Positions 18,893-36,219 of a stretch of 64,000 nucleotides of DNA are shown piece after piece. Both the position numbers and the translations under genes were made by a program. Positions within the stretch are counted from its first letter, which is position 1, and the number at the start of each line of letters is the position of its first letter. The notes beneath the pieces were generated by a model. The model was not told the DNA's origin, did not search any database, and saw only the letters and a program-made list of their open reading frames with translations. This stretch comes from Flavobacteriales bacterium (lineage in GTDB: Bacteria; Bacteroidota; Bacteroidia; Flavobacteriales; UBA7312), in NCBI GenBank assembly GCA_049890295.1, contig JBMHBP010000004.1, positions 78,851-142,850 on the forward strand. The letters are read 5' to 3'.

Positions 18893-19606
18893 ATGACAAA
18901 ATTAAGTGTCAATATAAATAAAATAGCAACTATTAGAAATGCTAGAGGTGGGCAGTTGCCAAATGTTACTTTAGCTGCTCAACGCTGTGAAGCGTTTGGG
19001 GCGGACGGCATTACTGTTCATCCAAGACCTGATGGTCGCCATATTACTTATACTGATGTACGAGAAATAGCAAAAATAGTTACTACTGAGTTTAATATTG
19101 AAGGCTTTCCTTCCAATGATTTTATACAGTTAATACATGAAGTCAAACCACACCAGGTTACTTTAGTGCCAGACCCGCCTGATGCTATTACATCCAACGC
19201 TGGTTGGGATACAATCAAACACCATGATTTTCTGCTTGATATACTTAAGGAGTTTAAACAAGCAGGTATTAGAACATCTTTATTTCTTGATACGAATTTA
19301 AAGTATATTGAGTCGGCAGCACATCTGCAATGTGATCGAATTGAATTATATACCGAAAACTATGCGGTTTTATTTCCCAAGAACAAAAAAGATAGCATAC
19401 AGCCATACATTGATGCCGCCCAACTTGCTCATCAGCTTGGATTTGGCCTCAATGCTGGTCACGATCTAAACCTTCATAATTTGAGTTATTTTAAGAAACA
19501 TATACCGTTTCTTGAAGAAGTTTCAATTGGACATGCTTTAATTTCTGACGCTTTGTACTTAGGTCTTGAGGAAACTATTCGTCAATATAAACAGTGTTTA
19601 AGGTAA
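18893..19606 (+). CDS. pdxJ: Pyridoxine 5'-phosphate synthase
   Basis: [38 protein letters not shown]; -7 element TACCTTTG at 18860-18867. Confidence 0.97.
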
Positions 19607-20367
19607 TGAGTTTATATTCCACTATTTATGGAAAGGGTCAGCCAATGGTTATAGTTCATGGCCTTTTTGGCATGTCCGACAACTGGACAACCATAGCTAA
19701 GCAATTTGCTGATTACTTTGAAGTACATATTTTAGATTTACCAAACCATGGTCGTTCGCCTCACACTAATGAGTTTAATTATAACAGTCTTTCACAAGCT
19801 GTTAAACAGTATTTTATAGAACATTCATTAGAACATTCATTACTTATCGGTCACTCTTTAGGGGGTAAAACTGCCATGCAACTAGCTACTTCAGAGCCAG
19901 AATTAATCTCTAAACTTATAGTTGTAGATATAAGCCCCCGTTTTTACCCCATTCATCATGATAAAATCTTGAAAGGCTTAAATGCAGTCGATTTATTAAA
20001 AATTAGTTCTAGACTAGAAGCAGAAAAACGTTTAGCTGAACATATAAGTGAATTAGACGTAAGGCAATTTTTGCTTAAAAGTATGTATTGGAAAGAAAAA
20101 GGAAAACTAGATTTTAGATTTAACCTTCCTGTAATTACAAAAAATATAGCTAATGTTGGGGAAGAATTGGGTCATAATAATTGTTTTATAAAACCGACCT
20201 TATTTTTAAAAGGTGAACTATCTAACTACATTAGTGAAGATGATGAAGATCTAATCTTTCACCATTTTCCAAAAGCAGAAATAGAGGTGATTTCCGGTTC
20301 GGGGCATTGGCTACATGCTGAAAATCCCAGTCAGTTTGTCGATGAGGTGATGCGGTTCAGTTTATAA
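19606..20367 (+). CDS. Alpha/beta hydrolase (YbfF/ABHD11-like esterase)
   Basis: HGLFG..DNW, D..NHGRS, GHSLGG nucleophile elbow, GHWLHAE; TAATG coupling to pdxJ. Confidence 0.9.
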   Translation: MSLYSTIYGKGQPMVIVHGLFGMSDNWTTIAKQFADYFEVHILDLPNHGRSPHTNEFNYNSLSQAVKQYFIEHSLEHSLLIGHSLGGKTAMQLATSEPELISKLIVVDISPRFYPIHHDKILKGLNAVDLLKISSRLEAEKRLAEHISELDVRQFLLKSMYWKEKGKLDFRFNLPVITKNIANVGEELGHNNCFIKPTLFLKGELSNYISEDDEDLIFHHFPKAEIEVISGSGHWLHAENPSQFVDEVMRFSL

Positions 20368-20369
20368 TC

Positions 20370-22643
20370 TTAATGAACAATTACCTTTATTTTTTCCTGT
20401 TCGACCTCTAAAAAGTAGACTCCTTTACTTAAGTTGTAATCAAAAGAAAACGTATTTAATCCTTCAGTTAAATTTAAACTTTTAGTGAACAATTGTCTAC
20501 CTTGTAGGTCAATAATTCTACAGTAATTTATTTCTGACGTATTCGAATACAGTTCAAAAATAAACTTACCGTTATTTGGATTTGGATACAAAGCGTATTT
20601 TAAATCTGTAATATCATTAATGGAAGTTGACGTACATGCTAATTGACAAGCAGCTAATGAATTATATGTCCCGCTACCATCCATTGGGTCAACACAGGCT
20701 TCATTTACACAATTAAAAGATGGTTCAACAGCATTTTCTAACTCATTCAATCTTTGATGAAACTCTTGATAAAATTGGTTAGTAATACTTGCATCATGAA
20801 TTATAATTGTGTTTTCATCATTATTCGTTTCAGCTGCACCAGACCAATTGTGAGAGCCAGTTACTACAGTAGGATCAGAGTCAACATTTGCGTGATCAAT
20901 GATGCAGTACTTATGATGAAAAATATCATCAACTTCTTGATGAGATAGTACGTTTGCACCCAGCTCTGTTAGGTATTCGTATTCTGATCCTTGTGTATTT
21001 ACTTGCTCAATAATACCATTTACCTCAACGCCTAAATTATATTGATCCTCAATAGCCCAAGCTAATTGATTGTTTGTAAAAACTAATAAACCAAAGTCAA
21101 TTTCATAATCGGCAGTTTTAATAGCATTTACAATATTAGTGGTCGTATTATCGGAAGGAGAAAAATAGACCTCAAATGGCTGACCGTTAACAGTGAAATG
21201 ATGTGGCGTATTGTTCTTCTTATTAGCTCCAAATTTTGCATTTGAAGCGTTGGGATTGTCGCCATCACTACCCCACATTTCATTGAATTCAATTTCAAAC
21301 GTTCTGGCTACTGATTGGTCTTGAATCATTACTAAATGGTTAGGGTCATCAAATATTTGACCACTTGTCCAGTTGGTAGATCCTGTTAAAACCCAGCAAC
21401 TATCAAAAACATTCGCATCAACAACAATAAATTTATTGTGCATTATACCCATTCCTTCTGGTCTTTCTAGCACTGGAATACCATCATTTAAGCTGCCAAG
21501 TGCCAGTGTTGCGGTTGATTCACAAGTAATATAACGGACTCTTACTCCTCTGTTATAAGCATCATTGATTGCTGATGTGATTAAGCCATCAGAGTGGTTG
21601 TAAACAGCTACGTCTAAAGTGTGTTGTGCTTTATCTATGTAAGCTTTTATGGAATCGTTAGTGTAAACTCCTGAAACTTGTGCATTTTCGATACTCGCAA
21701 CAGTAGTGTCTACAGAATGATTAAAACAAACTCTTATTTCACCAGACGAGTTTGATATAGTAGCAAAAGGTGTAATTGCGGAATAAGTTGTATCAGTATT
21801 ATCATAAGATATCCCCTGAACATAATATATACTACCAGCTTCTAAATTTTCTAAGCTAATAGAATGATCTGTGGAGGTAAGACCCTCAGAATCTACTAAA
21901 GTACCAAGTTCTAAATCAGCTGTTAAGCCATAACTTAAATCTGAGAATCCTTCTAAATTTGTTGTCCAGCTTATATCAAAACTTGTTGTTGTGACATTTG
22001 TTTGGACTAGTGGTGTTAATAAGCAAATTCCTTGTTCATACACAAAATCATTCATATCTCTGATCAGAAGTTGATAGCCATCATTACCAGTAAATGAATA
22101 CTGAGAAGATATGGCAATAATTGTCGCCGGACATGATGGGATAGTTTGACCTTCTAATTCTGAGTCTGCTTTAACGTAAATAATACCTTCTTCATCGTTG
22201 GCAGAAAAGGTGTGTGTACCGACGCTAAATACTTGCCCTGGATTATCGAAAATAGCATTTTCAATACTTATAAGTTCTGCTTCAGTGTCTTCTCCAATTT
22301 GTGAAGCAAAAATTATTGTTGGTTCAACAGTATAACCACTACCATGCACTGTTAAATCACTTATGGGTTGAAGTTCTAGTAATCCATTATAATCGACTAA
22401 TACTCCAGTTACTGTAATACTATCACCTCTACTGACACCACTCATCACATCTGGATCATACAATGCAATTCCGGCTGTTGCATCTTCAATGTATCGAATT
22501 GGTCCTAGTTCATCACCATTGGTTATAATTCCGCTTATAGTAACGGTCGAATTTAGAGCTTGCTGTCTAGCAGTTGCAATATCTTGAGCAATAATCTGAA
22601 AAGTACTTGTAAGTAGTGTAAAAATAATGAGGATAGCTTTCAT
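20370..22643 (-). CDS. T9SS-secreted PLD-superfamily (tandem HKD) enzyme with N-terminal OB-fold pair and FN3-like domain
   Basis: Signal peptide; OB-type GDSITVTG.LVDYNG.LEL and YQL.IRD..DF; HNKFIVVD...GSTN and HHKYCIID...GSHN; type-A CTD LYPNP...DLQGR...KGVYFL. Confidence 0.85.
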   Translation of the reverse strand: MKAILIIFTLLTSTFQIIAQDIATARQQALNSTVTISGIITNGDELGPIRYIEDATAGIALYDPDVMSGVSRGDSITVTGVLVDYNGLLELQPISDLTVHGSGYTVEPTIIFASQIGEDTEAELISIENAIFDNPGQVFSVGTHTFSANDEEGIIYVKADSELEGQTIPSCPATIIAISSQYSFTGNDGYQLLIRDMNDFVYEQGICLLTPLVQTNVTTTSFDISWTTNLEGFSDLSYGLTADLELGTLVDSEGLTSTDHSISLENLEAGSIYYVQGISYDNTDTTYSAITPFATISNSSGEIRVCFNHSVDTTVASIENAQVSGVYTNDSIKAYIDKAQHTLDVAVYNHSDGLITSAINDAYNRGVRVRYITCESTATLALGSLNDGIPVLERPEGMGIMHNKFIVVDANVFDSCWVLTGSTNWTSGQIFDDPNHLVMIQDQSVARTFEIEFNEMWGSDGDNPNASNAKFGANKKNNTPHHFTVNGQPFEVYFSPSDNTTTNIVNAIKTADYEIDFGLLVFTNNQLAWAIEDQYNLGVEVNGIIEQVNTQGSEYEYLTELGANVLSHQEVDDIFHHKYCIIDHANVDSDPTVVTGSHNWSGAAETNNDENTIIIHDASITNQFYQEFHQRLNELENAVEPSFNCVNEACVDPMDGSGTYNSLAACQLACTSTSINDITDLKYALYPNPNNGKFIFELYSNTSEINYCRIIDLQGRQLFTKSLNLTEGLNTFSFDYNLSKGVYFLEVEQEKIKVIVH

Positions 22644-22652
22644 ATTTAAAAT

Positions 22653-25454
22653 TTAGAATGTCAATTTAGCTGACAGGTTAATACGACGTCCCATACCAAA
22701 GAATACACCAGCTGACTTAGCGTCAAAATCAGAATAATTAGCGTTATAAGGATCGTTATTTTGGGCGTCTGAAATATAAATTTCGTTCAGAGCATTGAGG
22801 ATACTCATACGAAAATCTATTTTAGATTTTTTATTGAGTTTTAGGGTATATCCAGCATGAAAATCAACCAACTGATAGGCTGGTATTTTCCATGATTCTC
22901 GACCAGCATTTTCACCGTCTAATGAAAGTGGATCGAAATCGGAATAATAGTCATCAAAATGAGTAGCTCTAGCTTTGAGGTATATATTGTCAATAGGTTC
23001 GTACCGTACACTTAATCCTAATTGTGTTTGGGCAGCGTCACCAACATGAACTCCAGTAGCATCAAATGATTCAATGACCTCATTGCCAAAATCATCGATA
23101 ACAGGGTCGTTATTATCATCATAAAAACGAACGCTATCCTTTGATTGCCATGTCCAATCTCCTAAAGACATTAGCCCCTCTAGAGTAAGTTTATTATTCA
23201 GTCGTAGTGCCATATCCATTTCGATCCCTTTGTGTAAGGCATCCATTCCGTTGATGTTGGCTCGTACAGGTTCATCATCTACTAAAATTGATACGCCACC
23301 ATTAGATGGTTTGTTTTCCCATCGTGTATAGTAGCCGTTTAGGTTGGCAGAAAATAGGGATGAGCGATAGGAATATCCACCTTCTACTGCTTTGACAATT
23401 TCATTTTCGATATCACGATACAAATTGTTGGAATAATCGTAAATATTATTAAAACGAGGGGCTTTGGAAATATACCCTACATTAAAAAACACATTGTGGT
23501 TTAGATTAATGTTATAATTCGCTCCTGTTTTTAATGTAAAACCCTTAATCCATTTCCAAGAAGTTTCAGCACGTCTAGCTTGTGCTGAATTCATTGTGTA
23601 AGCTACACCGTTGTGAATAATGGTATCTTCTATCATGCTTTTTACAGCTCCTATAATGGCACCATTTTCATCGTAAATAATTTCTGTAATAACAGAAGTT
23701 CCTAGAGCTTCTACATAAGTAGTGTCTTCTAACACAAGATCTTTTTTCTTAAAATAATCTATACGTTTATAAGCAGAATTTGATCCAGAAATATTCAAAA
23801 AAGCACTAAGTTTTCCATCGCTGTATTCAGCCTGAGAAAATAGTCCTGACCATTTTACTATCCCATCGTTATGATATCTAATTTTATCGCCGACACGTTT
23901 AATTTGAGTATTCTGAAGTTTGTTGTCTTCATCAATGACATAGTCACCACCCAATAAATCATACACTTCTCTATAATGTTCACCTCTGTAAGATCGAAAA
24001 TCCAGCCCCCCTGAAAAAGTAAATTCCTCATTCATTTGGTAATTAATAGTGGATAGCCCGCCATACCAGTAATGATTATTGATTGAGCTTAACAGAAAAT
24101 TATTAGACTCCAATTCATTATCGCTAAAAAGAGGGTTGACATTATTCTTGTTAAGGTCGTAGGCGTCTTGAAAATTGTATTGACCATTTTGGTCATAATT
24201 GTCTGAGTTACTGCTGATATTAGTTCCGCCACCATTTCCAATTGATAAATAAGCAATATTTGAGATATAAAACTTATCACTTACGGCCCAAAAATCACGT
24301 AGTGAAAATTGAGGTTTATGGTAATAGTTTTTCTTGGTATTCAATACTTCCTTATTTCTAAGGGTATCACCATTTGAATTTAGCTCCCAACGGTCAAGGT
24401 GTCCCCAGTGCTTATTATAACTGATACCTTTGTTGTTTATGTCGCCAAATAAAGTATCGTTTATTCCCAGTTCTGAAGCATATTCTGTTGAATAGGTGGC
24501 AATATCGCTTTTATATGAACGTTGACCATGTTGCTGTGGCGCACCTAAAGCGGATAAACTTAGAGTATGTTTGCCTATAGTTTTTTGAACTTTTGCATAG
24601 TAGAAAAATCCCTCACTAAATGTTTCTTCAACAAAACCATACCCTCTTTTGTATGAGCCTGCAAAAGTAAGTCCCCAGCCATTTTTTAATTTTCCTGAAT
24701 TATAACCTACAGTGGTTCGTAGTTTTCCATAGGAATCGACTTCTTGTTTTATACTTCCACCCTTTCGATTTTCAATACCTTTGGTAAGCAGATTCATTGT
24801 GCCACCAACGGAAGGTATTGCAATTTTAGAAGCACCTAATCCTCTCTGAACCTGAATATTACTAGTCACTGCATCTAATCCAAACCAATTTGACCAATAG
24901 ACCCAGCCATTTTCCATATCATTTACTGGAATACCATCTATCATAACCGCTACATTCCTTTGGTTGAAACCACGAATAGTTATTCTAGCATCACCATCTC
25001 CGCCACCTTGTTGTGTAGCATATACTCCTGGAGTAGAGTTTAGTACCATTGGAATATCCTGAGAGGCTAGCTCCTCATCGATTTTTTTGAGAGGAATGGT
25101 AGAAAAAGCTACAGGTGTTTTTCTGTCTATAGCTACATCAGCCACCACTTGAACTTCATTCAATACAATAGTATTTAGCCCTATATTTAGTTGAATGGGT
25201 TTTCCTTCCAGCTTTAAATTTTTAGTAACTTTCTGATAACCAACATAAGAAATACTAACGTCAATTGTTTTAGCTGAAGATTCAAAGCTGAAATTCCCAT
25301 CAAAATCAGTAACTATACCTTTACCGTCAAAGGCTATAGTTGCCCCAAATAGAGGCTCATTTGTTGTATTATCAATTACGTTACCTTTTATTTTAGTCTG
25401 ACCAAAAGTAGAAATAGATAATACTAGACTAGCAATTAGAATAATATGCCTCAT
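22653..25454 (-). CDS. TonB-dependent receptor with N-terminal carboxypeptidase-regulatory-like domain (non-SusC type)
   Basis: Signal peptide, GNVID..TNEPLFGATI...TDFDGNF, plug IRGF.QRN.AVMIDGIPVND...QRGLGAS...GGT.N, C-terminal GRRINLSAKLTF. Confidence 0.92.
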   Translation of the reverse strand: MRHIILIASLVLSISTFGQTKIKGNVIDNTTNEPLFGATIAFDGKGIVTDFDGNFSFESSAKTIDVSISYVGYQKVTKNLKLEGKPIQLNIGLNTIVLNEVQVVADVAIDRKTPVAFSTIPLKKIDEELASQDIPMVLNSTPGVYATQQGGGDGDARITIRGFNQRNVAVMIDGIPVNDMENGWVYWSNWFGLDAVTSNIQVQRGLGASKIAIPSVGGTMNLLTKGIENRKGGSIKQEVDSYGKLRTTVGYNSGKLKNGWGLTFAGSYKRGYGFVEETFSEGFFYYAKVQKTIGKHTLSLSALGAPQQHGQRSYKSDIATYSTEYASELGINDTLFGDINNKGISYNKHWGHLDRWELNSNGDTLRNKEVLNTKKNYYHKPQFSLRDFWAVSDKFYISNIAYLSIGNGGGTNISSNSDNYDQNGQYNFQDAYDLNKNNVNPLFSDNELESNNFLLSSINNHYWYGGLSTINYQMNEEFTFSGGLDFRSYRGEHYREVYDLLGGDYVIDEDNKLQNTQIKRVGDKIRYHNDGIVKWSGLFSQAEYSDGKLSAFLNISGSNSAYKRIDYFKKKDLVLEDTTYVEALGTSVITEIIYDENGAIIGAVKSMIEDTIIHNGVAYTMNSAQARRAETSWKWIKGFTLKTGANYNINLNHNVFFNVGYISKAPRFNNIYDYSNNLYRDIENEIVKAVEGGYSYRSSLFSANLNGYYTRWENKPSNGGVSILVDDEPVRANINGMDALHKGIEMDMALRLNNKLTLEGLMSLGDWTWQSKDSVRFYDDNNDPVIDDFGNEVIESFDATGVHVGDAAQTQLGLSVRYEPIDNIYLKARATHFDDYYSDFDPLSLDGENAGRESWKIPAYQLVDFHAGYTLKLNKKSKIDFRMSILNALNEIYISDAQNNDPYNANYSDFDAKSAGVFFGMGRRINLSAKLTF

Positions 25455-25474
25455 TTGAAAATTAAGGTTTTAAC

Positions 25475-26392
25475 TTACTTTATTAAGATTGAGGTCGTTT
25501 GAACGGTGTTATCATTAAAGGTTAATGATAAAATATAAAGCCCTTTCTCAATATCTCTGGTATTTAATTGATGTTTTGTTGTTGAGCTAGATCTTGTAGT
25601 AATATTAACTTCCTGTCCTAGAATAGAAAATAACTTAATTGTTTCAATCGATTTTTTAGCTTGAACAGTTACAATTTGACCTTTTACTGAAGGGTTAGGG
25701 TAGGCGACAAAACTACTCATCTCATTCTCATTGATATTGGCAGGGTTGCCGTTACAATCACAATCATGAGTTCCAAGTTCAGACCATGTGTTAATAGACA
25801 AGGAATCCCATTCTGTTGAAGGATTAAATAGGACAGGATTTGTACTTACGCCACTTTTGACACTAGCTTTTCTTACTAGTGTATGATTTTTTGTCCACCA
25901 TGCACCATTATTTGCATCAGTAAATCCAGCAGTAGCGTCGTCAGTCCATGCGTCACCAGGATCTTCTCCAATTTTTCCGACAATATCAATCAAGGTGCCA
26001 TTTTTTGATAGAGCGATAACATCATTTCCGTTCATATATAATGGGGAAGGATATTCTGGAGCCCATTGATCAGCCATATTGTATAATTCCACTTCAATGT
26101 AGCCAAATTCATTAGCCGAGTTGGTGTCAGCGTTAGTAACTACCCATGTACCATAAGCGTCAATACTGCCAGATAATGTCATGTCATCAGAAACTGTACT
26201 AGAACCATTGGCATATCGTTCAATCTTATATGCACTTAAATCAATAGGGGATGAGGTAGGGTTATAAATTTCAACAGCTTTGTTGTTTGAAGAGCCTTCT
26301 ACATATTCAGAAATAAATAGTTCAGAACAATCTTGAGCGAATGTTGAGAGTGATAAAAGGCATAAAGCAAATGTTGTTAATGATAACTTCAT
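25475..26392 (-). CDS. T9SS-secreted lamin-tail-domain (LTD) protein with no evident catalytic domain
   Basis: Signal peptide, LFISEYVEGSSNNKAVEIYNPT..IDLS.Y, NGNDVIAL, TLVRK, type-A CTD AYPNP...SILGQ...KGLYIL. Confidence 0.85.
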   Translation of the reverse strand: MKLSLTTFALCLLSLSTFAQDCSELFISEYVEGSSNNKAVEIYNPTSSPIDLSAYKIERYANGSSTVSDDMTLSGSIDAYGTWVVTNADTNSANEFGYIEVELYNMADQWAPEYPSPLYMNGNDVIALSKNGTLIDIVGKIGEDPGDAWTDDATAGFTDANNGAWWTKNHTLVRKASVKSGVSTNPVLFNPSTEWDSLSINTWSELGTHDCDCNGNPANINENEMSSFVAYPNPSVKGQIVTVQAKKSIETIKLFSILGQEVNITTRSSSTTKHQLNTRDIEKGLYILSLTFNDNTVQTTSILIK

Positions 26393-26423
26393 AGGTTGAG
26401 TGTTTTAAATTAAGAATTAGTGT

Positions 26424-26431
26424 CAAAAATA
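26424..26431 (-). promoter_or_regulatory. -7 element for the LTD-TBDR-PLD operon
   Basis: TATTTTTG on the minus strand, 31 nt before the ATG at 26392. Confidence 0.5.
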
Positions 26432-26579: not shown

Positions 26580-27320
26580 ATGTCAAACAATTTAGTTATA
26601 ATACCAACATACAATGAAAAAGAAAATATTGAGCGAATCATTCGTAAAGTATTTTCTTTTGAATTAGCTTTTGATATACTCATTGTGGATGACGGTTCTC
26701 CTGATGGAACGGCTCAAATAGTCAAAAATCTTCAATCTGAATTTGACTCTTTACATCTCCAGGAAAGGACAGGTAAGCTTGGATTAGGCACTGCCTACAT
26801 TCATGGATTTAAGTGGGCTTTAAATAGGGATTTTGACTACATTTTTGAGATGGACGCTGATTTTTCTCACGATCCTGACGATTTATTAAGATTACATCAT
26901 GCTTGTGCTTCAAACAACGCTGATTTAGCAATAGGATCTCGTTATACAAATGGGGTAAATATTGTGAACTGGCCAATGAGTAGACTACTCATGTCCTTCT
27001 TTGCTTCCAAATACGTAAAATTTGTCACCGGTCTTCCTGTGAATGATTCAACAGCTGGATTTATTTGCTACAAACGATCTGTTTTGGAAACCATTGATTT
27101 AGATATGATTCAGTTTGTAGGCTATGCCTTTCAAATAGAAATGAAATTTAAGGCCTGGCGTTCCGCCTTTACTATAAAAGAAGTGCCAGTTATTTTTACA
27201 GATCGTAAAGAAGGTTATTCAAAAATGGATACTTCCATATTTTTTGAAGCTTTTATTGGCGTGCTACAACTTAAATTCAAAAGTTTTTTTTCCAAACCTA
27301 AACAAAAACCTAATGCTTAA
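26580..27320 (+). CDS. Polyprenol monophosphomannose synthase-like GT2 (Dpm1-like)
   Basis: IIPTYNE, VDDGSPDGT, GLGTAY, EMDADFSHDP, GYAFQIEM. Confidence 0.92.
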   Translation: MSNNLVIIPTYNEKENIERIIRKVFSFELAFDILIVDDGSPDGTAQIVKNLQSEFDSLHLQERTGKLGLGTAYIHGFKWALNRDFDYIFEMDADFSHDPDDLLRLHHACASNNADLAIGSRYTNGVNIVNWPMSRLLMSFFASKYVKFVTGLPVNDSTAGFICYKRSVLETIDLDMIQFVGYAFQIEMKFKAWRSAFTIKEVPVIFTDRKEGYSKMDTSIFFEAFIGVLQLKFKSFFSKPKQKPNA

Positions 27321-28647
27321 AACACTCATTCGAAATGCTCAAATTGTCAATGAAGGGCATTTATATCAATCGGATGTTTTAATTGAAAACGGGATTATTT
27401 CAAAAATCGCTCAAAAAATTGATGTCTACACTGATGAAATAATTGATGCAAATGGAAGCTTATTAATACCCGGTGTGATTGATGATCAAGTTCATTTTAG
27501 AGAACCAGGCTTAACCCATAAAGCTGATATCTATTGCGAGTCGAGAGCAGCTGTTGCTGGAGGAATTACGTCCTACATGGAAATGCCAAATACAGTCCCT
27601 CAAACTCTAACCCAAGACCTTCTGGAAGAAAAATATAACAAAGCGAGTCAAGTTTCACTGGCCAACTATTCTTTTTTTATGGGAGCGTCAAACGATAACT
27701 TAGATGAAGTTCTCAAAACAGACCCAAAAACAGTTGGAGCAATTAAAATTTTTATGGGCTCCTCAACCGGTAATATGTTAGTTGACAATAGGCAGGTTTT
27801 GGAAAAAATATTTCAGAAATCTAAAATGTTGATTGCTGTACACTGCGAAGATGAGGAGACTATTAGAACAAATACAGAAAAAGCCAAAGCACAATTTGGT
27901 GAGGATATTCCTATTAATTATCATCCTGTAATAAGAAATGACGAGGCCTGTTATAAGTCATCGTCAATGGCTATTGAATTAGCTAAAAAATACAATACAC
28001 GCTTACATGTTTTTCATTTAAGTACAGCTAAGGAATTGGACTTATTTAGAAACGATATTCCATTAGAAGAAAAGCGAATTACTGCTGAGGTTTGTATTCA
28101 TCATTTATGGTTCAATGATAGTCAGTACGAAGAGAAGGGAACTCACATAAAATGGAATCCAGCCGTGAAATCAGAATATGATAGATCACAACTTTTTGAG
28201 GCAATGTTAGATGATAGGCTTGATATAATTGCTACTGATCATGCACCTCATACTTTAGATGAAAAAAATAACACCTACCTCAAAGCTCCTTCTGGCGGTC
28301 CTTTGGTTCAACACGCTTTAGTGGCAATGCTAGAGTTCTATCATCAAGGAAAAATAGCTTTAGAAAAGATTGTGGAAAAAATGTGCCATGCCCCGGCTAT
28401 TTGTTTTCAATTAAGTAATAGAGGATTTATTCGAGAAGGGTATGCTGCAGACCTAGTACTAGTCGATTTAAATAAGCCTTGGCAAGTTGAAAAGAAAAAT
28501 ATTTTATATAAATGTGGTTGGTCTCCATTTGAAGGCACTACTTTTAAATCGAAAGTCACTCATACATGGGTAAACGGACATTTAGTTTATAAAGAAGGTG
28601 AATTTGATGAATCTAAAAAGGGAGCTAGGTTGCTATTCGATAGGTAA
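27313..28647 (+). CDS. pyrC: Dihydroorotase
   Basis: DDQVHFREPG, EMPNT.P, KIFMGSSTG, KWNP, ATDHAPH, WSPFEG. Start moved to ATG 27313. Confidence 0.93.
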   Translation: MLKTLIRNAQIVNEGHLYQSDVLIENGIISKIAQKIDVYTDEIIDANGSLLIPGVIDDQVHFREPGLTHKADIYCESRAAVAGGITSYMEMPNTVPQTLTQDLLEEKYNKASQVSLANYSFFMGASNDNLDEVLKTDPKTVGAIKIFMGSSTGNMLVDNRQVLEKIFQKSKMLIAVHCEDEETIRTNTEKAKAQFGEDIPINYHPVIRNDEACYKSSSMAIELAKKYNTRLHVFHLSTAKELDLFRNDIPLEEKRITAEVCIHHLWFNDSQYEEKGTHIKWNPAVKSEYDRSQLFEAMLDDRLDIIATDHAPHTLDEKNNTYLKAPSGGPLVQHALVAMLEFYHQGKIALEKIVEKMCHAPAICFQLSNRGFIREGYAADLVLVDLNKPWQVEKKNILYKCGWSPFEGTTFKSKVTHTWVNGHLVYKEGEFDESKKGARLLFDR

Positions 28648-34070: not shown

Positions 34071-35213
34071 TTAAAACCCTAATTTTCCAAAGAATTTAGA
34101 AAGACCTGCTAAAAATTCTCTTGGCATTTCTACTAACATAGAATTAAAACTTAATTGATCGTTAACACCTATGGCAATGGCAATAGATATAATCAATCCT
34201 ATTAGGGCATATGAAAAATCTTTAATAAGCAGTTTAAATGCTGTAGCTGTACTATTTTCTCCGGTATTTCGGATAGCCATAGCCACTTCTCTACCACCCA
34301 AGAGTCCAATAAACACCCATGTTGTACTCATTGGTACTTGAGAGTATAGTTTAAAGTAGAATAAGATAATACAGTAAATAAAATCGATGATAGTGGCAAA
34401 ACGAACATCGTTAACCACAGATTTTTCGGTAACAATTTTTTGAATTCTACCCCCCTTATAGTAGAGAAGTAGTCCCAACCCAATAAATACTACACCGGCA
34501 AAACCTAAAAACTGAATAAAACTCATGCTTCTAGGTAAGTAAACCGCTATGTTTGCGGCATCTTGCATAAGCCAAACCGACCATAGTGTGCCGCTAGTTA
34601 ACCATTGAGCGATTGTCCATCCAAACTTTGCTTTTCCAGTAAACACGCGTTTTGCCCATCTAGATATTAGCATAAATAAGCCAAAGCCAAAGAAGAAAGC
34701 CAATACATAACCACTCATACTTTTTGCTAATACTTGACCTACTGCGGCAGGAGCGGCAGCAAAGGAAGTTAGTAAAATGAAAGTAGTTGAAACTGGCATT
34801 CTAAGCCTAGTTAAAATGAGTAAAAAAACAGGAGCAGCTATTTGAAGGAAATGAAATTCTGTAGGGCTCTTCTCAAACCCCTTGGCCATGAGACGTCCAT
34901 GACTGACATCACCGTTGAAAGTAAACCACGAATAGCCTACCGTAAATAAAAAAATTCCGCCAATAAATATCCACAATACCCACCATTTTTTGTCTTGATT
35001 AGAGGCGATAAACGTTCCAATAGTTTGAATGCTATCGTTGGCAACAGCTGCATAAGCTGCAAAAATAAAACCAACCCACATACCAAGCTGCGGGTAAGGA
35101 GTAGCAAACATAGCAATCATGAATGCGACAACGATGAAGGTCAAAAAGTTTCGCTCATCTTTGTTAACGACTAACTGAGTTGTGCTTCGGAAGTTGGAAA
35201 ATAATTTTTTCAT
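34071..35213 (-). CDS. Polytopic membrane protein, divergent PiT/PHO4-like anion transporter
   Basis: About 10 TM segments with internally duplicated motifs (VANDSIQT / MQDAANI and MPVSTT / VPMSTT) resembling the PiT GAND..N and P.S.T signatures. Confidence 0.65.
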   Translation of the reverse strand: MKKLFSNFRSTTQLVVNKDERNFLTFIVVAFMIAMFATPYPQLGMWVGFIFAAYAAVANDSIQTIGTFIASNQDKKWWVLWIFIGGIFLFTVGYSWFTFNGDVSHGRLMAKGFEKSPTEFHFLQIAAPVFLLILTRLRMPVSTTFILLTSFAAAPAAVGQVLAKSMSGYVLAFFFGFGLFMLISRWAKRVFTGKAKFGWTIAQWLTSGTLWSVWLMQDAANIAVYLPRSMSFIQFLGFAGVVFIGLGLLLYYKGGRIQKIVTEKSVVNDVRFATIIDFIYCIILFYFKLYSQVPMSTTWVFIGLLGGREVAMAIRNTGENSTATAFKLLIKDFSYALIGLIISIAIAIGVNDQLSFNSMLVEMPREFLAGLSKFFGKLGF

Positions 35214-35538: not shown

Positions 35539-36219
35539 ATGACTAATGCCTCAAAAATACTAATTGTTGATGACGAAAAGGATATTTTAGAGTTTTTATC
35601 CTATAATTTGAAAGCCGAAGGCTATGAGGTAATAGTGGCCGACAATGGTGTTCAGGCTATTGAATTGGCTCAATTACACCAGCCTGCTCTGATTATTCTC
35701 GATGTTCAAATGCCTAACATGGATGGAATTACAACATGTGAAAAAATTCGTGAAATCCCTTCCCTAAAAGATGTCATCATTACTTTTTTGACGGCTCGAT
35801 CAGAAGATTATTCGCAAATTGCAGGTTTTGAAGCAGGAGCTGATGATTACATTAATAAACCCATTCGTCCAAAAGTATTAGTCAGCCGGGTAAAAGCCCT
35901 GTTAAAACGCGGTGGCTACAGCCAGGATTCTGACTCTTCAATAAACTTAGGGGATATATTGGTTAATATTGAAAAGCATCAAACCTTTTACAAGGGTAGT
36001 GAAATTAATCTAGCAAAAAAGGAGTTCAAATTATTGAAACTTTTGATCTCTAAACCTGGAAAAGTATTTACTCGGGAAGAAATTCTTGAAAAAGTATGGG
36101 GAATGGATATTATTGTTGGAGATAGAACAATTGACGTTCATATCAGAAAGTTACGTGAAAAATTTGCCAATCATTACATCAAAACTATAAAAGGAGTAGG
36201 CTATAAATTTGAATACTAA
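35539..36219 (+). CDS. phoP: OmpR/PhoB-family response regulator (PhoP-like)
   Basis: VDDE, LDVQMP, FLTA, GADDY..KP, winged helix RTIDVHIRKLREK...IKT.KGVGY; -7 element TACATTTG at 35525-35532. Confidence 0.85.
   Translation: MTNASKILIVDDEKDILEFLSYNLKAEGYEVIVADNGVQAIELAQLHQPALIILDVQMPNMDGITTCEKIREIPSLKDVIITFLTARSEDYSQIAGFEAGADDYINKPIRPKVLVSRVKALLKRGGYSQDSDSSINLGDILVNIEKHQTFYKGSEINLAKKEFKLLKLLISKPGKVFTREEILEKVWGMDIIVGDRTIDVHIRKLREKFANHYIKTIKGVGYKFEY

Follow-up and report, generated by a model that had tools for sequence, protein, structure and literature searches.

Two described systems come closest to the locus reported here. The first is the ddbABCDEF locus of Bacteroides thetaiotaomicron (Sharan et al., PNAS 2025), for which the report (PMC12478041) describes active secreted nucleases, a TonB-dependent transporter (DdbC), and a DUF5689 protein (DdbD) that caps DdbC in AlphaFold3 predictions and resembles a DNA-binding domain. 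The locus is termed there polysaccharide utilization locus (PUL)-like, its subtypes replace one another as whole loci at one chromosomal site, and relatives were surveyed in named genomes by >50% identity and >75% coverage to four DdbC queries (Bt1, Bt2, Pv1, and Pv2). The second is a gene pair of Riemerella anatipestifer, RA0C_RS04915 (a barrel with CarboxypepD_reg) and RA0C_RS04920 (DUF5689 plus DUF5017), which is described as essential for natural transformation (Huang et al. 2021; PMC8459023). Flavobacterium johnsoniae also codes for two nucleases, EndA1 and EndA2, built from fn3, lamin-tail (LTD), and Endonuclease_1 domains and reported to be induced by phosphate depletion (PMC8115612). 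The subject here is a three-gene cassette in a 64,000-nucleotide (nt) window, which is the whole stretch of DNA analyzed, from a Flavobacteriales bacterium (assembly GCA_049890295.1, contig JBMHBP010000004.1, positions 78,851 to 142,850). The cassette codes for an LTD protein, a TonB-dependent receptor, and a DUF5689/phospholipase D (PLD)-like protein, and is predicted, with a probability of about 0.72, to be one cell-surface system that captures, cuts, and imports extracellular nucleic acid, a PUL-like arrangement for DNA or RNA. An initial annotation had proposed an extracellular nucleic acid utilization locus around a dedicated importer, and this proposal is supported, by computation only, by the conservation of the trio, the exchange of nucleases in its third slot, and its links to DUF5689 and LTD domains.

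The cassette spans positions 20370..26431 of the window, and its three open reading frames (ORFs) all lie on the minus strand. Gene 1 (P0001; 25475..26392) codes for the LTD protein of 305 amino acids (aa), with a signal peptide and a type IX secretion system (T9SS) type A tail; gene 2 (P0002; 22653..25454) codes for the 933-aa TonB-dependent outer-membrane receptor; and gene 3 (P0003; 20370..22643) codes for a 757-aa protein with a signal peptide, a DUF5689 domain, an FN3-like segment, two HKD (PLDc_2) domains, a linker, and a T9SS type A tail. Gaps of 20 nt (25455-25474) and 9 nt (22644-22652) separate the genes, a spacing that suggests a single transcript. The layout given in the initial annotation is borne out by the ORF list and domain scans: the trio is co-oriented with these gaps, the receptor gene lies between two genes for T9SS cargo (Por_Secre_tail and TIGR04183 matches in P0001 and P0003), the flanking housekeeping genes are on the opposite strand, and no SusD (Pfam and NCBIfam scans), carbohydrate-active enzyme, or peptidase family is matched among the three proteins.

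Each of the three proteins was searched in the same 251 Flavobacteriales genomes, where receptor matches (E <= 1e-50) are present in 146; a phylum-wide sample has them in 72 of 351 genomes (E <= 1e-60). In the families designated f1, f2, f3, and f12, a full-length PLD homologue follows the receptor gene at a distance of tens of bases, and in f1, f2, f3, f9, f12, f13, and f15 an LTD homologue immediately precedes it. Forty loci were extracted and their ORFs called, 17 of them with a close receptor orthologue (clade A, below). The LTD gene is upstream in all 17, and the third slot holds either a PLD gene (nine loci, with that of L043 counted from homologue-search coordinates and not from ORF calls) or an Endonuclease_1 gene with a T9SS tail (eight loci, in families f9, f13, and f15; 318-1030 aa, E 6e-37 to 1.5e-44). 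In the later total of 25 clade-A loci, an LTD gene and a nuclease gene accompany the receptor in every one, with the nuclease of the Endonuclease I type in 13. Taken overall, the slot-3 Endonuclease_1 (PF04231) matches have E values of 1e-21 to 1e-44, the proteins are comparable in size to the PLD type and have a T9SS tail, and some of them also contain DUF5689 or LTD.

The two slot-3 types are complementary across families. A search for Endonuclease I finds it in 0/20 genomes of f1, 0/2 of f2, 3/32 of f3, 15/16 of f9, 5/5 of f13, and 11/17 of f15, and the three f3 exceptions (G002, G203, and G208) are without a PLD match and have loci that read LTD, receptor, Endonuclease I. The cassette extends to other orders of the class, with LTD, receptor, and PLD genes at L100 and L114, a DUF5689+Endonuclease I protein in the third position at L102, and Endonuclease I there at L103. 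A second locus set comprises the best 80 loci, all from metagenome-assembled genomes (MAGs) or single-amplified genomes (SAGs) of Flavobacteriales, Bacteroidales, Marinilabiliales, Saprospiraceae, and unclassified Bacteroidota, and overlaps partly with the genomes of the 251- and 351-genome samples. An LTD gene is present in 72 of the 75 loci with at least 1000 nt upstream; the 64 loci with at least 2500 nt downstream have 47 PLD, 15 Endonuclease I, and 2 neither; and the full cassette is present in 60 of the 62 for which both flanks are available. A DUF5689-like domain is coded downstream in 47/47 of the PLD loci and 5/15 of the Endonuclease I loci in this set. The gene neighborhood survey of the receptor family called for by the initial annotation thus returns recurrent LTD and nuclease partners (60/62 MAG/SAG loci and 25/25 clade-A loci), and it is this conservation across genomes, not the window alone, that places the arrangement beyond chance. 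Several families of streamlined marine Flavobacteriales have the predicted cassette near-universally, and it is also present in Saprospiraceae and Bacteroidales MAGs. A rearranged version is seen at L101:4024-11723 (G405), where PLD comes first, then a short LTD protein of 203 aa in which no tail is found, and then the receptor, with a sigma-54-dependent response regulator after it.

P0003 begins with a DUF5689 domain (aa 22-199; 22047..22580, minus strand), which scores 36.9 bits against a cut-off of 28.6 (E 4.5e-9) when the first 200 residues are scanned alone and is the sole DUF5689 match in the genome (six-frame search, 32.3 bits). The initial annotation had read an "OB fold" (oligonucleotide/oligosaccharide binding) in this protein; it is specifically this DUF5689 domain, a module proposed in the ddb report as a DNA-binding lid of DNA-importing TonB transporters (PMC12478041). 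An FN3-like beta-sandwich follows at about aa 205-297 (21753..22031, minus strand), with weak fibronectin matches (E 4e-4 and weaker); the segment is all-beta in the structural model, with a predicted local distance difference test score (pLDDT) mostly >80, and homologues match fn3/Pur_ac_phosph_N at the same position. The tandem HKD region (aa 329-637; 20733..21659, minus strand) has PLDc_2 matches at 20754-21134 and 21273-21647 (E 2.1e-38), and no other protein of the genome matches PLDc_2. Its first motif set is H402-x-K404-xxxx-D409 with G421-S-T-N424 and its second is H577-K578...D583 with G596-S-H-N599; both HxKxxxxD/GSxN sets are intact and invariant across 12 homologues. The T9SS type A C-terminal sorting domain (aa 685-757; 20373..20591, minus strand) scores 41.3 bits with Por_Secre_tail and 41.2 bits with TIGR04183 (cut-off, 23), and the N termini of both P0001 and P0003, read by eye, are without a lipobox cysteine at the cleavage region.

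The P0003 homologue profile is closest among solved structures to Zucchini/MitoPLD (8.1e-19), Nuc (1byr, 3.6e-16), and NucT (8.8e-9), with weaker matches to the 'phospholipase' 7e0m (7.4e-6) and to PLD3 (3e-3). The only NCBIfam matches of P0003 are to the NucT and DrmC models, besides the T9SS tail ones (TIGR04183 and T9SSA_dep_M36). P0003 shares the HxK...D and GSxN motifs with Nuc (of the Salmonella plasmid pKM101), NucT (Helicobacter), and Zucchini/MitoPLD, its best sequence matches. Nuc, NucT, and Zucchini are single-HKD proteins that dimerize, whereas P0003 unites two HKD halves in a single chain, as in PLD3 and PLD4, together with DUF5689, FN3, and the T9SS tail. The AlphaFold model (pLDDT 78.9) resembles two-HKD enzymes generally, and its predicted fold alone cannot separate a nuclease from a lipase. 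P0003 is read as a nuclease rather than a lipase because the nonhomologous Endonuclease I fills the same slot and because, among solved structures, Zucchini, Nuc, and NucT are closest to it in sequence, which argues for a predicted secreted or surface-anchored nuclease, as the initial annotation had favored. The decisive argument for this predicted activity is the displacement by Endonuclease I proteins, which end in a T9SS tail as well and often share the accessory domains. The exchange also provides a putative functional label for a tandem-HKD 'phospholipase D-like' family whose members would otherwise be annotated as lipid enzymes.

P0001 is a predicted noncatalytic surface or secreted nucleic acid binder. 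Its LTD (PF00932; aa 21-140) scores 64.8 bits in a Pfam scan (cut-off, 34.3), and its T9SS type A C-terminal domain (aa 231-305) scores 39.5 bits with Por_Secre_tail and 39.2 bits with TIGR04183 (cut-off, 23). Residues 22-227 match the NCBIfam ExeM model NF033680 over positions 23-192 of 884 only (95.3 bits, E 2.4e-27; the cut-off of 1300 is not reached). In a fold search, the model (pLDDT 83.7) is an Ig-like sandwich similar to the lamin A/C globular domain (1ifr, E 8.8e-4), with a tail similar to solved T9SS substrate C-terminal domains and no enzyme fold found; a profile search of the Protein Data Bank with the LTD protein returns T9SS tails as the only matches. Columns invariant among 21 LTD-partner homologues include C22, the R174-K175 pair, and H209-x-C211-x-C213 in a conserved linker, and Cys22 with H209-x-C211-x-C213 may constitute a disulfide or metal site.

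The LTD recurs in related settings. Fusions join it to canonical DUF5689 proteins in Flavobacteriales loci L084 and L086 and to Endonuclease I in L052, and giant T9SS proteins (L065 and L066) combine it with OB domains and two or three copies of DUF5689. The latter (L065:3811-7686, 1291 aa; L066:631-7858, 1426 aa) contain LTD, two to three DUF5689 stretches, and tRNA_anti-codon OB folds with no catalytic Pfam domain, and the L066 protein comes after another TonB-dependent receptor (969 aa). A 513-aa T9SS protein (L067:3179-4720) likewise has LTD and one DUF5689 with no catalytic Pfam domain. One LTD gene (G132:C3:71176-72073) matches in two overlapping frames (71176-71559 and 71549-72073), a possible frameshift or assembly error. 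The pairing of LTD and OB-type modules with a secreted nuclease is shared with ExeM/YhcR-type nucleases and with EndA1/EndA2 as reported (PMC8115612), but the modules here are split over two proteins flanking a transporter.

The receptor P0002 contains a CarbopepD_reg_2 domain (aa 22-103) and a Plug domain (PF07715; aa 111-218, 51.9 bits against a cut-off of 23.9) and is homologous over its full length to other TonB-dependent receptors; no Pfam barrel model is matched at E <= 0.01, and no SusC/RagA, siderophore, or B12 NCBIfam equivalog reaches its cut-off. P0002 aligns with canonical DUF5689-paired receptors of Flavobacteriales over most of its length (E 2e-21 to 1e-39). A FastTree phylogeny of 53 receptors gives support of 100 to the LTD-linked clade A (18 rows, including P0002), 99 to clade A together with a more distant clade B, and 100 to the DUF5689-paired clade C. 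Clade A is, on this phylogeny, a distinct receptor clade, always linked to an LTD gene. Clade-B receptors (31-37% identity) have neighbors that include NPP-type phosphodiesterases (L108 and L110), an S1/P1 nuclease (L115), PhoD-like phosphatases (L071 and L072), and Endonuclease I (L054), which points to a phosphoester or nucleotide cargo for the receptor family, although the association is not universal.

Clade-B receptors have some further unusual contexts. In G121 and G153 they lie a few kilobases from a canonical cassette; at L083 (G121:C16:21000-40000) and L079/L054 (G153), a clade-B receptor and a 554-559-aa protein are 3-4 kb from a canonical nuclease/receptor/DUF5689 cassette, forming a small DNA-handling island, which in G153 also carries a Big_9+Endonuclease I protein. 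In family f8, a clade-B receptor and a canonical cassette are 9-23 kb apart. Other clade-B receptors are beside phosphoglucose isomerase or nadB/nadC and are followed by a small conserved ORF of 140-153 aa (L055:10152-10583, L062:9778-10203, L063:9963-10385, L064:5196-5621, L059:10118-10555, and L060:5520-5981), with no Pfam family above cut-off and, in two, weak subthreshold Pox_A14 matches.

Compared with ddb as reported (PMC12478041), the cassette has the same PUL-like logic for DNA: a DUF5689 module comes after a SusD-less TonB transporter, and a secreted (here predicted) nuclease is part of the locus. The gene directly 3' of the receptor starts with DUF5689, as in Ddb-type loci, but the domain is here fused to the N terminus of a predicted nuclease rather than being a separate protein; the partners have Sec signals and T9SS tails, whereas the ddb partners are signal peptidase II (SPII) lipoproteins; and a constant LTD partner gene is present. 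The nuclease is of the tandem-HKD or Endonuclease I type, whereas the canonical Flavobacteriales loci examined carry Exo_endo_phos. The Riemerella pair, compared by architecture only (PMC8459023), is also from the Flavobacteriales and also consists of a receptor with an N-terminal carboxypeptidase-regulatory-like domain followed by a DUF5689-bearing gene, but it differs in receptor clade (judged by architecture), and the cassette adds the fusion of a nuclease to DUF5689 and the LTD gene. Like SusC/SusD PULs, the cassette combines surface binder(s), a surface hydrolase, and a TonB-dependent importer in one predicted operon; unlike them, it has no SusD and no SusC/RagA signature, the hydrolase is a predicted nuclease, and the partners are T9SS cargo.

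Canonical look-alikes were identified in Flavobacteriales through the DUF5689 family; in them, a CarboxypepD_reg receptor of 920-980 aa is accompanied by a divergent Exo_endo_phos_3 nuclease and by a DUF5689 protein. The strongest link to this design is one of position. In the two f1 genomes that have no P0002 match at E <= 1e-50 (G067 and G116), a canonical cassette (L080 and L081) takes up the backbone slot that the present cassette occupies in the window, with glycosyltransferase/dihydroorotase-like genes on one side and hydrolase/pdxJ on the other. These loci, from sister genus g4 (L080:7142-14639 and L081:3854-11386), code for two Exo_endo_phos nucleases, a receptor, a DUF5689+DUF5017 protein, and a DUF5017+T9SS protein, and the exchange looks like a whole-locus substitution echoing that reported for the ddb subtypes (PMC12478041). 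Elsewhere, a 547-aa protein with two DUF5689 repeats (L082:3373-10027; G011) adjoins a Cas9-like gene (RuvC_III+HNH_4, 1429 aa), with no receptor beside it in the ORF list.

The novelty caveat of the initial annotation applies in part: SusD-less Bacteroidota loci for DNA utilization or uptake are already in print (PMC12478041 and PMC8459023), and the cassette is, as far as compared, a distant paralogue with another architecture and not an orthologue. No published description of an LTD-receptor-PLD/Endonuclease I cassette was found by literature search, although papers beyond the literature searched, or the supplements of PMC12478041, may hold one. The ddb survey, at >50% identity, would miss clade A unless a Pv type belongs to the clade, and the comparison here used Flavobacteriales DUF5689-paired receptors as a proxy for DdbC. 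The cassette is best filed as a putative distinct variant of DNA-importing TonB systems, set apart by its receptor clade, by the fusion of the presumed lid domain to nucleases that can replace one another, by export through the T9SS, and by an LTD partner that is constant.

The source genome is 1.72 Mb and 99% complete and has only six receptor-like matches to P0002. It codes for a T9SS (SprA_N match, E 9.5e-165) and has 54 Por_Secre_tail matches, such that T9SS cargo makes up a notable share of a streamlined genome. No Endonuclease I is found in it by family search. A NupC-type nucleoside carrier and a 520-aa NPP-family (NPP/PafA-like) enzyme are present, as are ComEC and DprA despite the small genome size. 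Pieces identical to all three cassette genes occur in seawater metatranscriptome contigs in four runs of one study; the runs contained only 6-12% of the sampled words, and the uncovered parts are uninformative.

Several observations weigh against reading the cassette as a nucleic acid import system or limit the support for it. Relatives inherit gene order by descent, so that the locus counts measure conservation and overstate independent support; two of the 62 loci with both flanks (L188 and L192) are without both partners, and L172 is without the LTD gene. The branching order of clades A+B, clade C, and the remaining receptors is not resolved in the FastTree tree, and the identity between P0002 and DUF5689-paired receptors is only 21-23%. 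Many clade-B loci have no nuclease or phosphatase neighbor (L053, L055-L060, L062-L064, L074, L075, L104-L107, and L109). P0003 scores 67.5 bits against the NucT equivalog cut-off of 297, and Foldseek ranks phospholipase D 7e0m first (1.1e-15), ahead of the PLD3/PLD4 5' exonucleases, vaccinia F13, and PLD1/2. No UshA-type 5'-nucleotidase or PhoA-type phosphatase is found in the genome, leaving the periplasmic steps uncertain, and the metatranscriptome contigs are 151-318 nt, bridge neither gene junction, and could derive from DNA carry-over.

An unlikely alternative is that the cassette provides the outer-membrane step of natural transformation, binding DNA at the cell surface and passing long DNA to the periplasm for ComEC and DprA, as proposed for Riemerella, rather than serving nutrition. 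The architecturally related receptor and DUF5689 pair reported as essential in R. anatipestifer (PMC8459023), the use of the same site by the canonical cassette in the sister genus, and the retention of ComEC and DprA in so small a genome all fit this explanation. The last of these says little, however, as the ComEC and DprA families also match control genomes including Escherichia coli and B. thetaiotaomicron, and each cassette codes for a predicted nonspecific nuclease that is secreted and that, in the PLD forms, is joined to the presumed lid; such an enzyme would destroy transforming DNA. The receptor clade also differs from the DUF5689-paired one, and the related clade-B receptors are beside phosphodiesterases and phosphatases. 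A transformation role could coexist with a nutritional one, and one system may serve both ends.

It is considerably less probable that P0003 is a phospholipase or phosphodiesterase whose substrates are lipid head groups or other phosphodiesters, with the receptor importing a phosphoester such as glycerophosphodiesters. Lipases occur in the PLD superfamily, the best Foldseek match is to a bacterial phospholipase D (7e0m), and the clade-B receptors adjoin general phosphodiesterases and PhoD. Against this, a lipid substrate does not fit the presence of Endonuclease I in slot 3 of 15/64 MAG/SAG loci and 13/25 clade-A loci, the sequence relatives are Zucchini, Nuc, and NucT, and the fused DUF5689 and partner LTD are modules of nucleases and DNA uptake systems.

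Similarly improbable, and if anything more so, is that the nuclease and LTD protein serve some other extracellular role, such as remodeling of an extracellular DNA matrix or escape from aggregates, with an unrelated cargo for the receptor. A ddbF-type nuclease of B. thetaiotaomicron has been linked to biofilm formation (PMC8851478; also cited in PMC12478041), but the receptor is the most constant member of the cassette with both partners kept across several orders, the 9-20 nt gaps suggest one transcript, and the organism has a streamlined planktonic-type genome. That the three genes are neighbors by chance with no joint function is scarcely credible, for although T9SS cargo genes are common in the genome (54 tail matches), the conservation counts (complete cassettes in 60/62 MAG/SAG and 25/25 clade-A loci across families and orders, in backbones that differ outside f1-f3/f9/f15) contradict it.

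As a system for nucleic acid capture and import, the cassette would operate as follows. P0001 and P0003 would be exported via Sec and type IX secretion and remain on or near the cell surface, where the LTD protein and the P0003 DUF5689 domain, judging from their domain families, would hold the polymer; T9SS cargo would presumably replace SusD, as the initial annotation had it. The tandem-HKD domain, a Nuc/Zucchini-like member of the PLD superfamily, would, judging from homology and from its displacement by Endonuclease I, cut the polymer to oligonucleotides or nucleotides, and the TonB-dependent receptor would carry the products into the periplasm. The NPP/PafA-like enzyme and the NupC-type carrier, encoded elsewhere, could then complete the use of phosphate and nucleosides. 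DUF5689 may sit on the receptor in the way proposed for DdbD on DdbC, tethering the nuclease at the transporter mouth; this placement is considered because the gene order, receptor and then DUF5689 gene, is that of ddb (PMC12478041). A complex prediction with receptor residues 115-933 and the DUF5689 domain (P0003 20-200), with alignments as input, gives a score of 0.00, which is neither for nor against binding. Phosphate control of the cassette is suggested only by analogy with the F. johnsoniae nucleases (PMC8115612).

The cassette is a concrete three-protein candidate for DNA uptake, kept in a 1.72-Mb genome and conserved across orders, and it would extend the DNA transporters of gut Bacteroidales and Riemerella to another receptor clade, T9SS export, and a fused lid-nuclease design. 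In seawater and sediments, dissolved DNA makes up a major pool of organic phosphorus and nitrogen, and to our knowledge the route of DNA uptake by abundant marine Bacteroidota is not established. A broader and decidedly tentative proposal is that these loci represent a large, unrecognized Bacteroidota importer family in which a nuclease-bearing DUF5689 lid (PLD or Endonuclease I), held by the T9SS, would together with the LTD protein shred and swallow DNA or RNA at a single pore. If so, the cassette could be a main route by which abundant marine flavobacteria turn over dissolved nucleic acid and its organic phosphorus and nitrogen, given its near-universal presence in several streamlined marine Flavobacteriales families and its occurrence in Saprospiraceae and Bacteroidales MAGs; a nuclease-lid importer might also feed ComEC-dependent gene uptake.

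The cassette is flanked entirely by plus-strand genes. On the P0003 side are PdxJ (18893-19606) and an alpha/beta hydrolase (19594-20367), and on the P0001 side a family-2 glycosyltransferase (26580-27320) and a dihydroorotase-like amidohydrolase (27244-28647). A candidate -7 element, TATTTTTG (26424..26431, minus strand), read from the sequence 31 nt upstream of the P0001 ATG, resembles TAnnTTTG, which we take to be the Bacteroidota -7 promoter consensus. A sigma-70 scan finds 27 promoter-like sites against 31.8 expected from shuffles, with a consensus ill-suited to Bacteroidota, and a terminator scan finds 4 terminator-like sites against 3.2 expected. The guanine-plus-cytosine content is uniform over the cassette region (0.33-0.37), and this evenness, with a flanking backbone common to relatives, argues against recent horizontal transfer of the cassette. 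Elsewhere in the window, a 380-aa protein without a Pfam match, multipass membrane by eye (34071-35213, minus strand), is divergent from an OmpR-type response regulator (Response_reg+Trans_reg_C; 35539-36219, plus strand).

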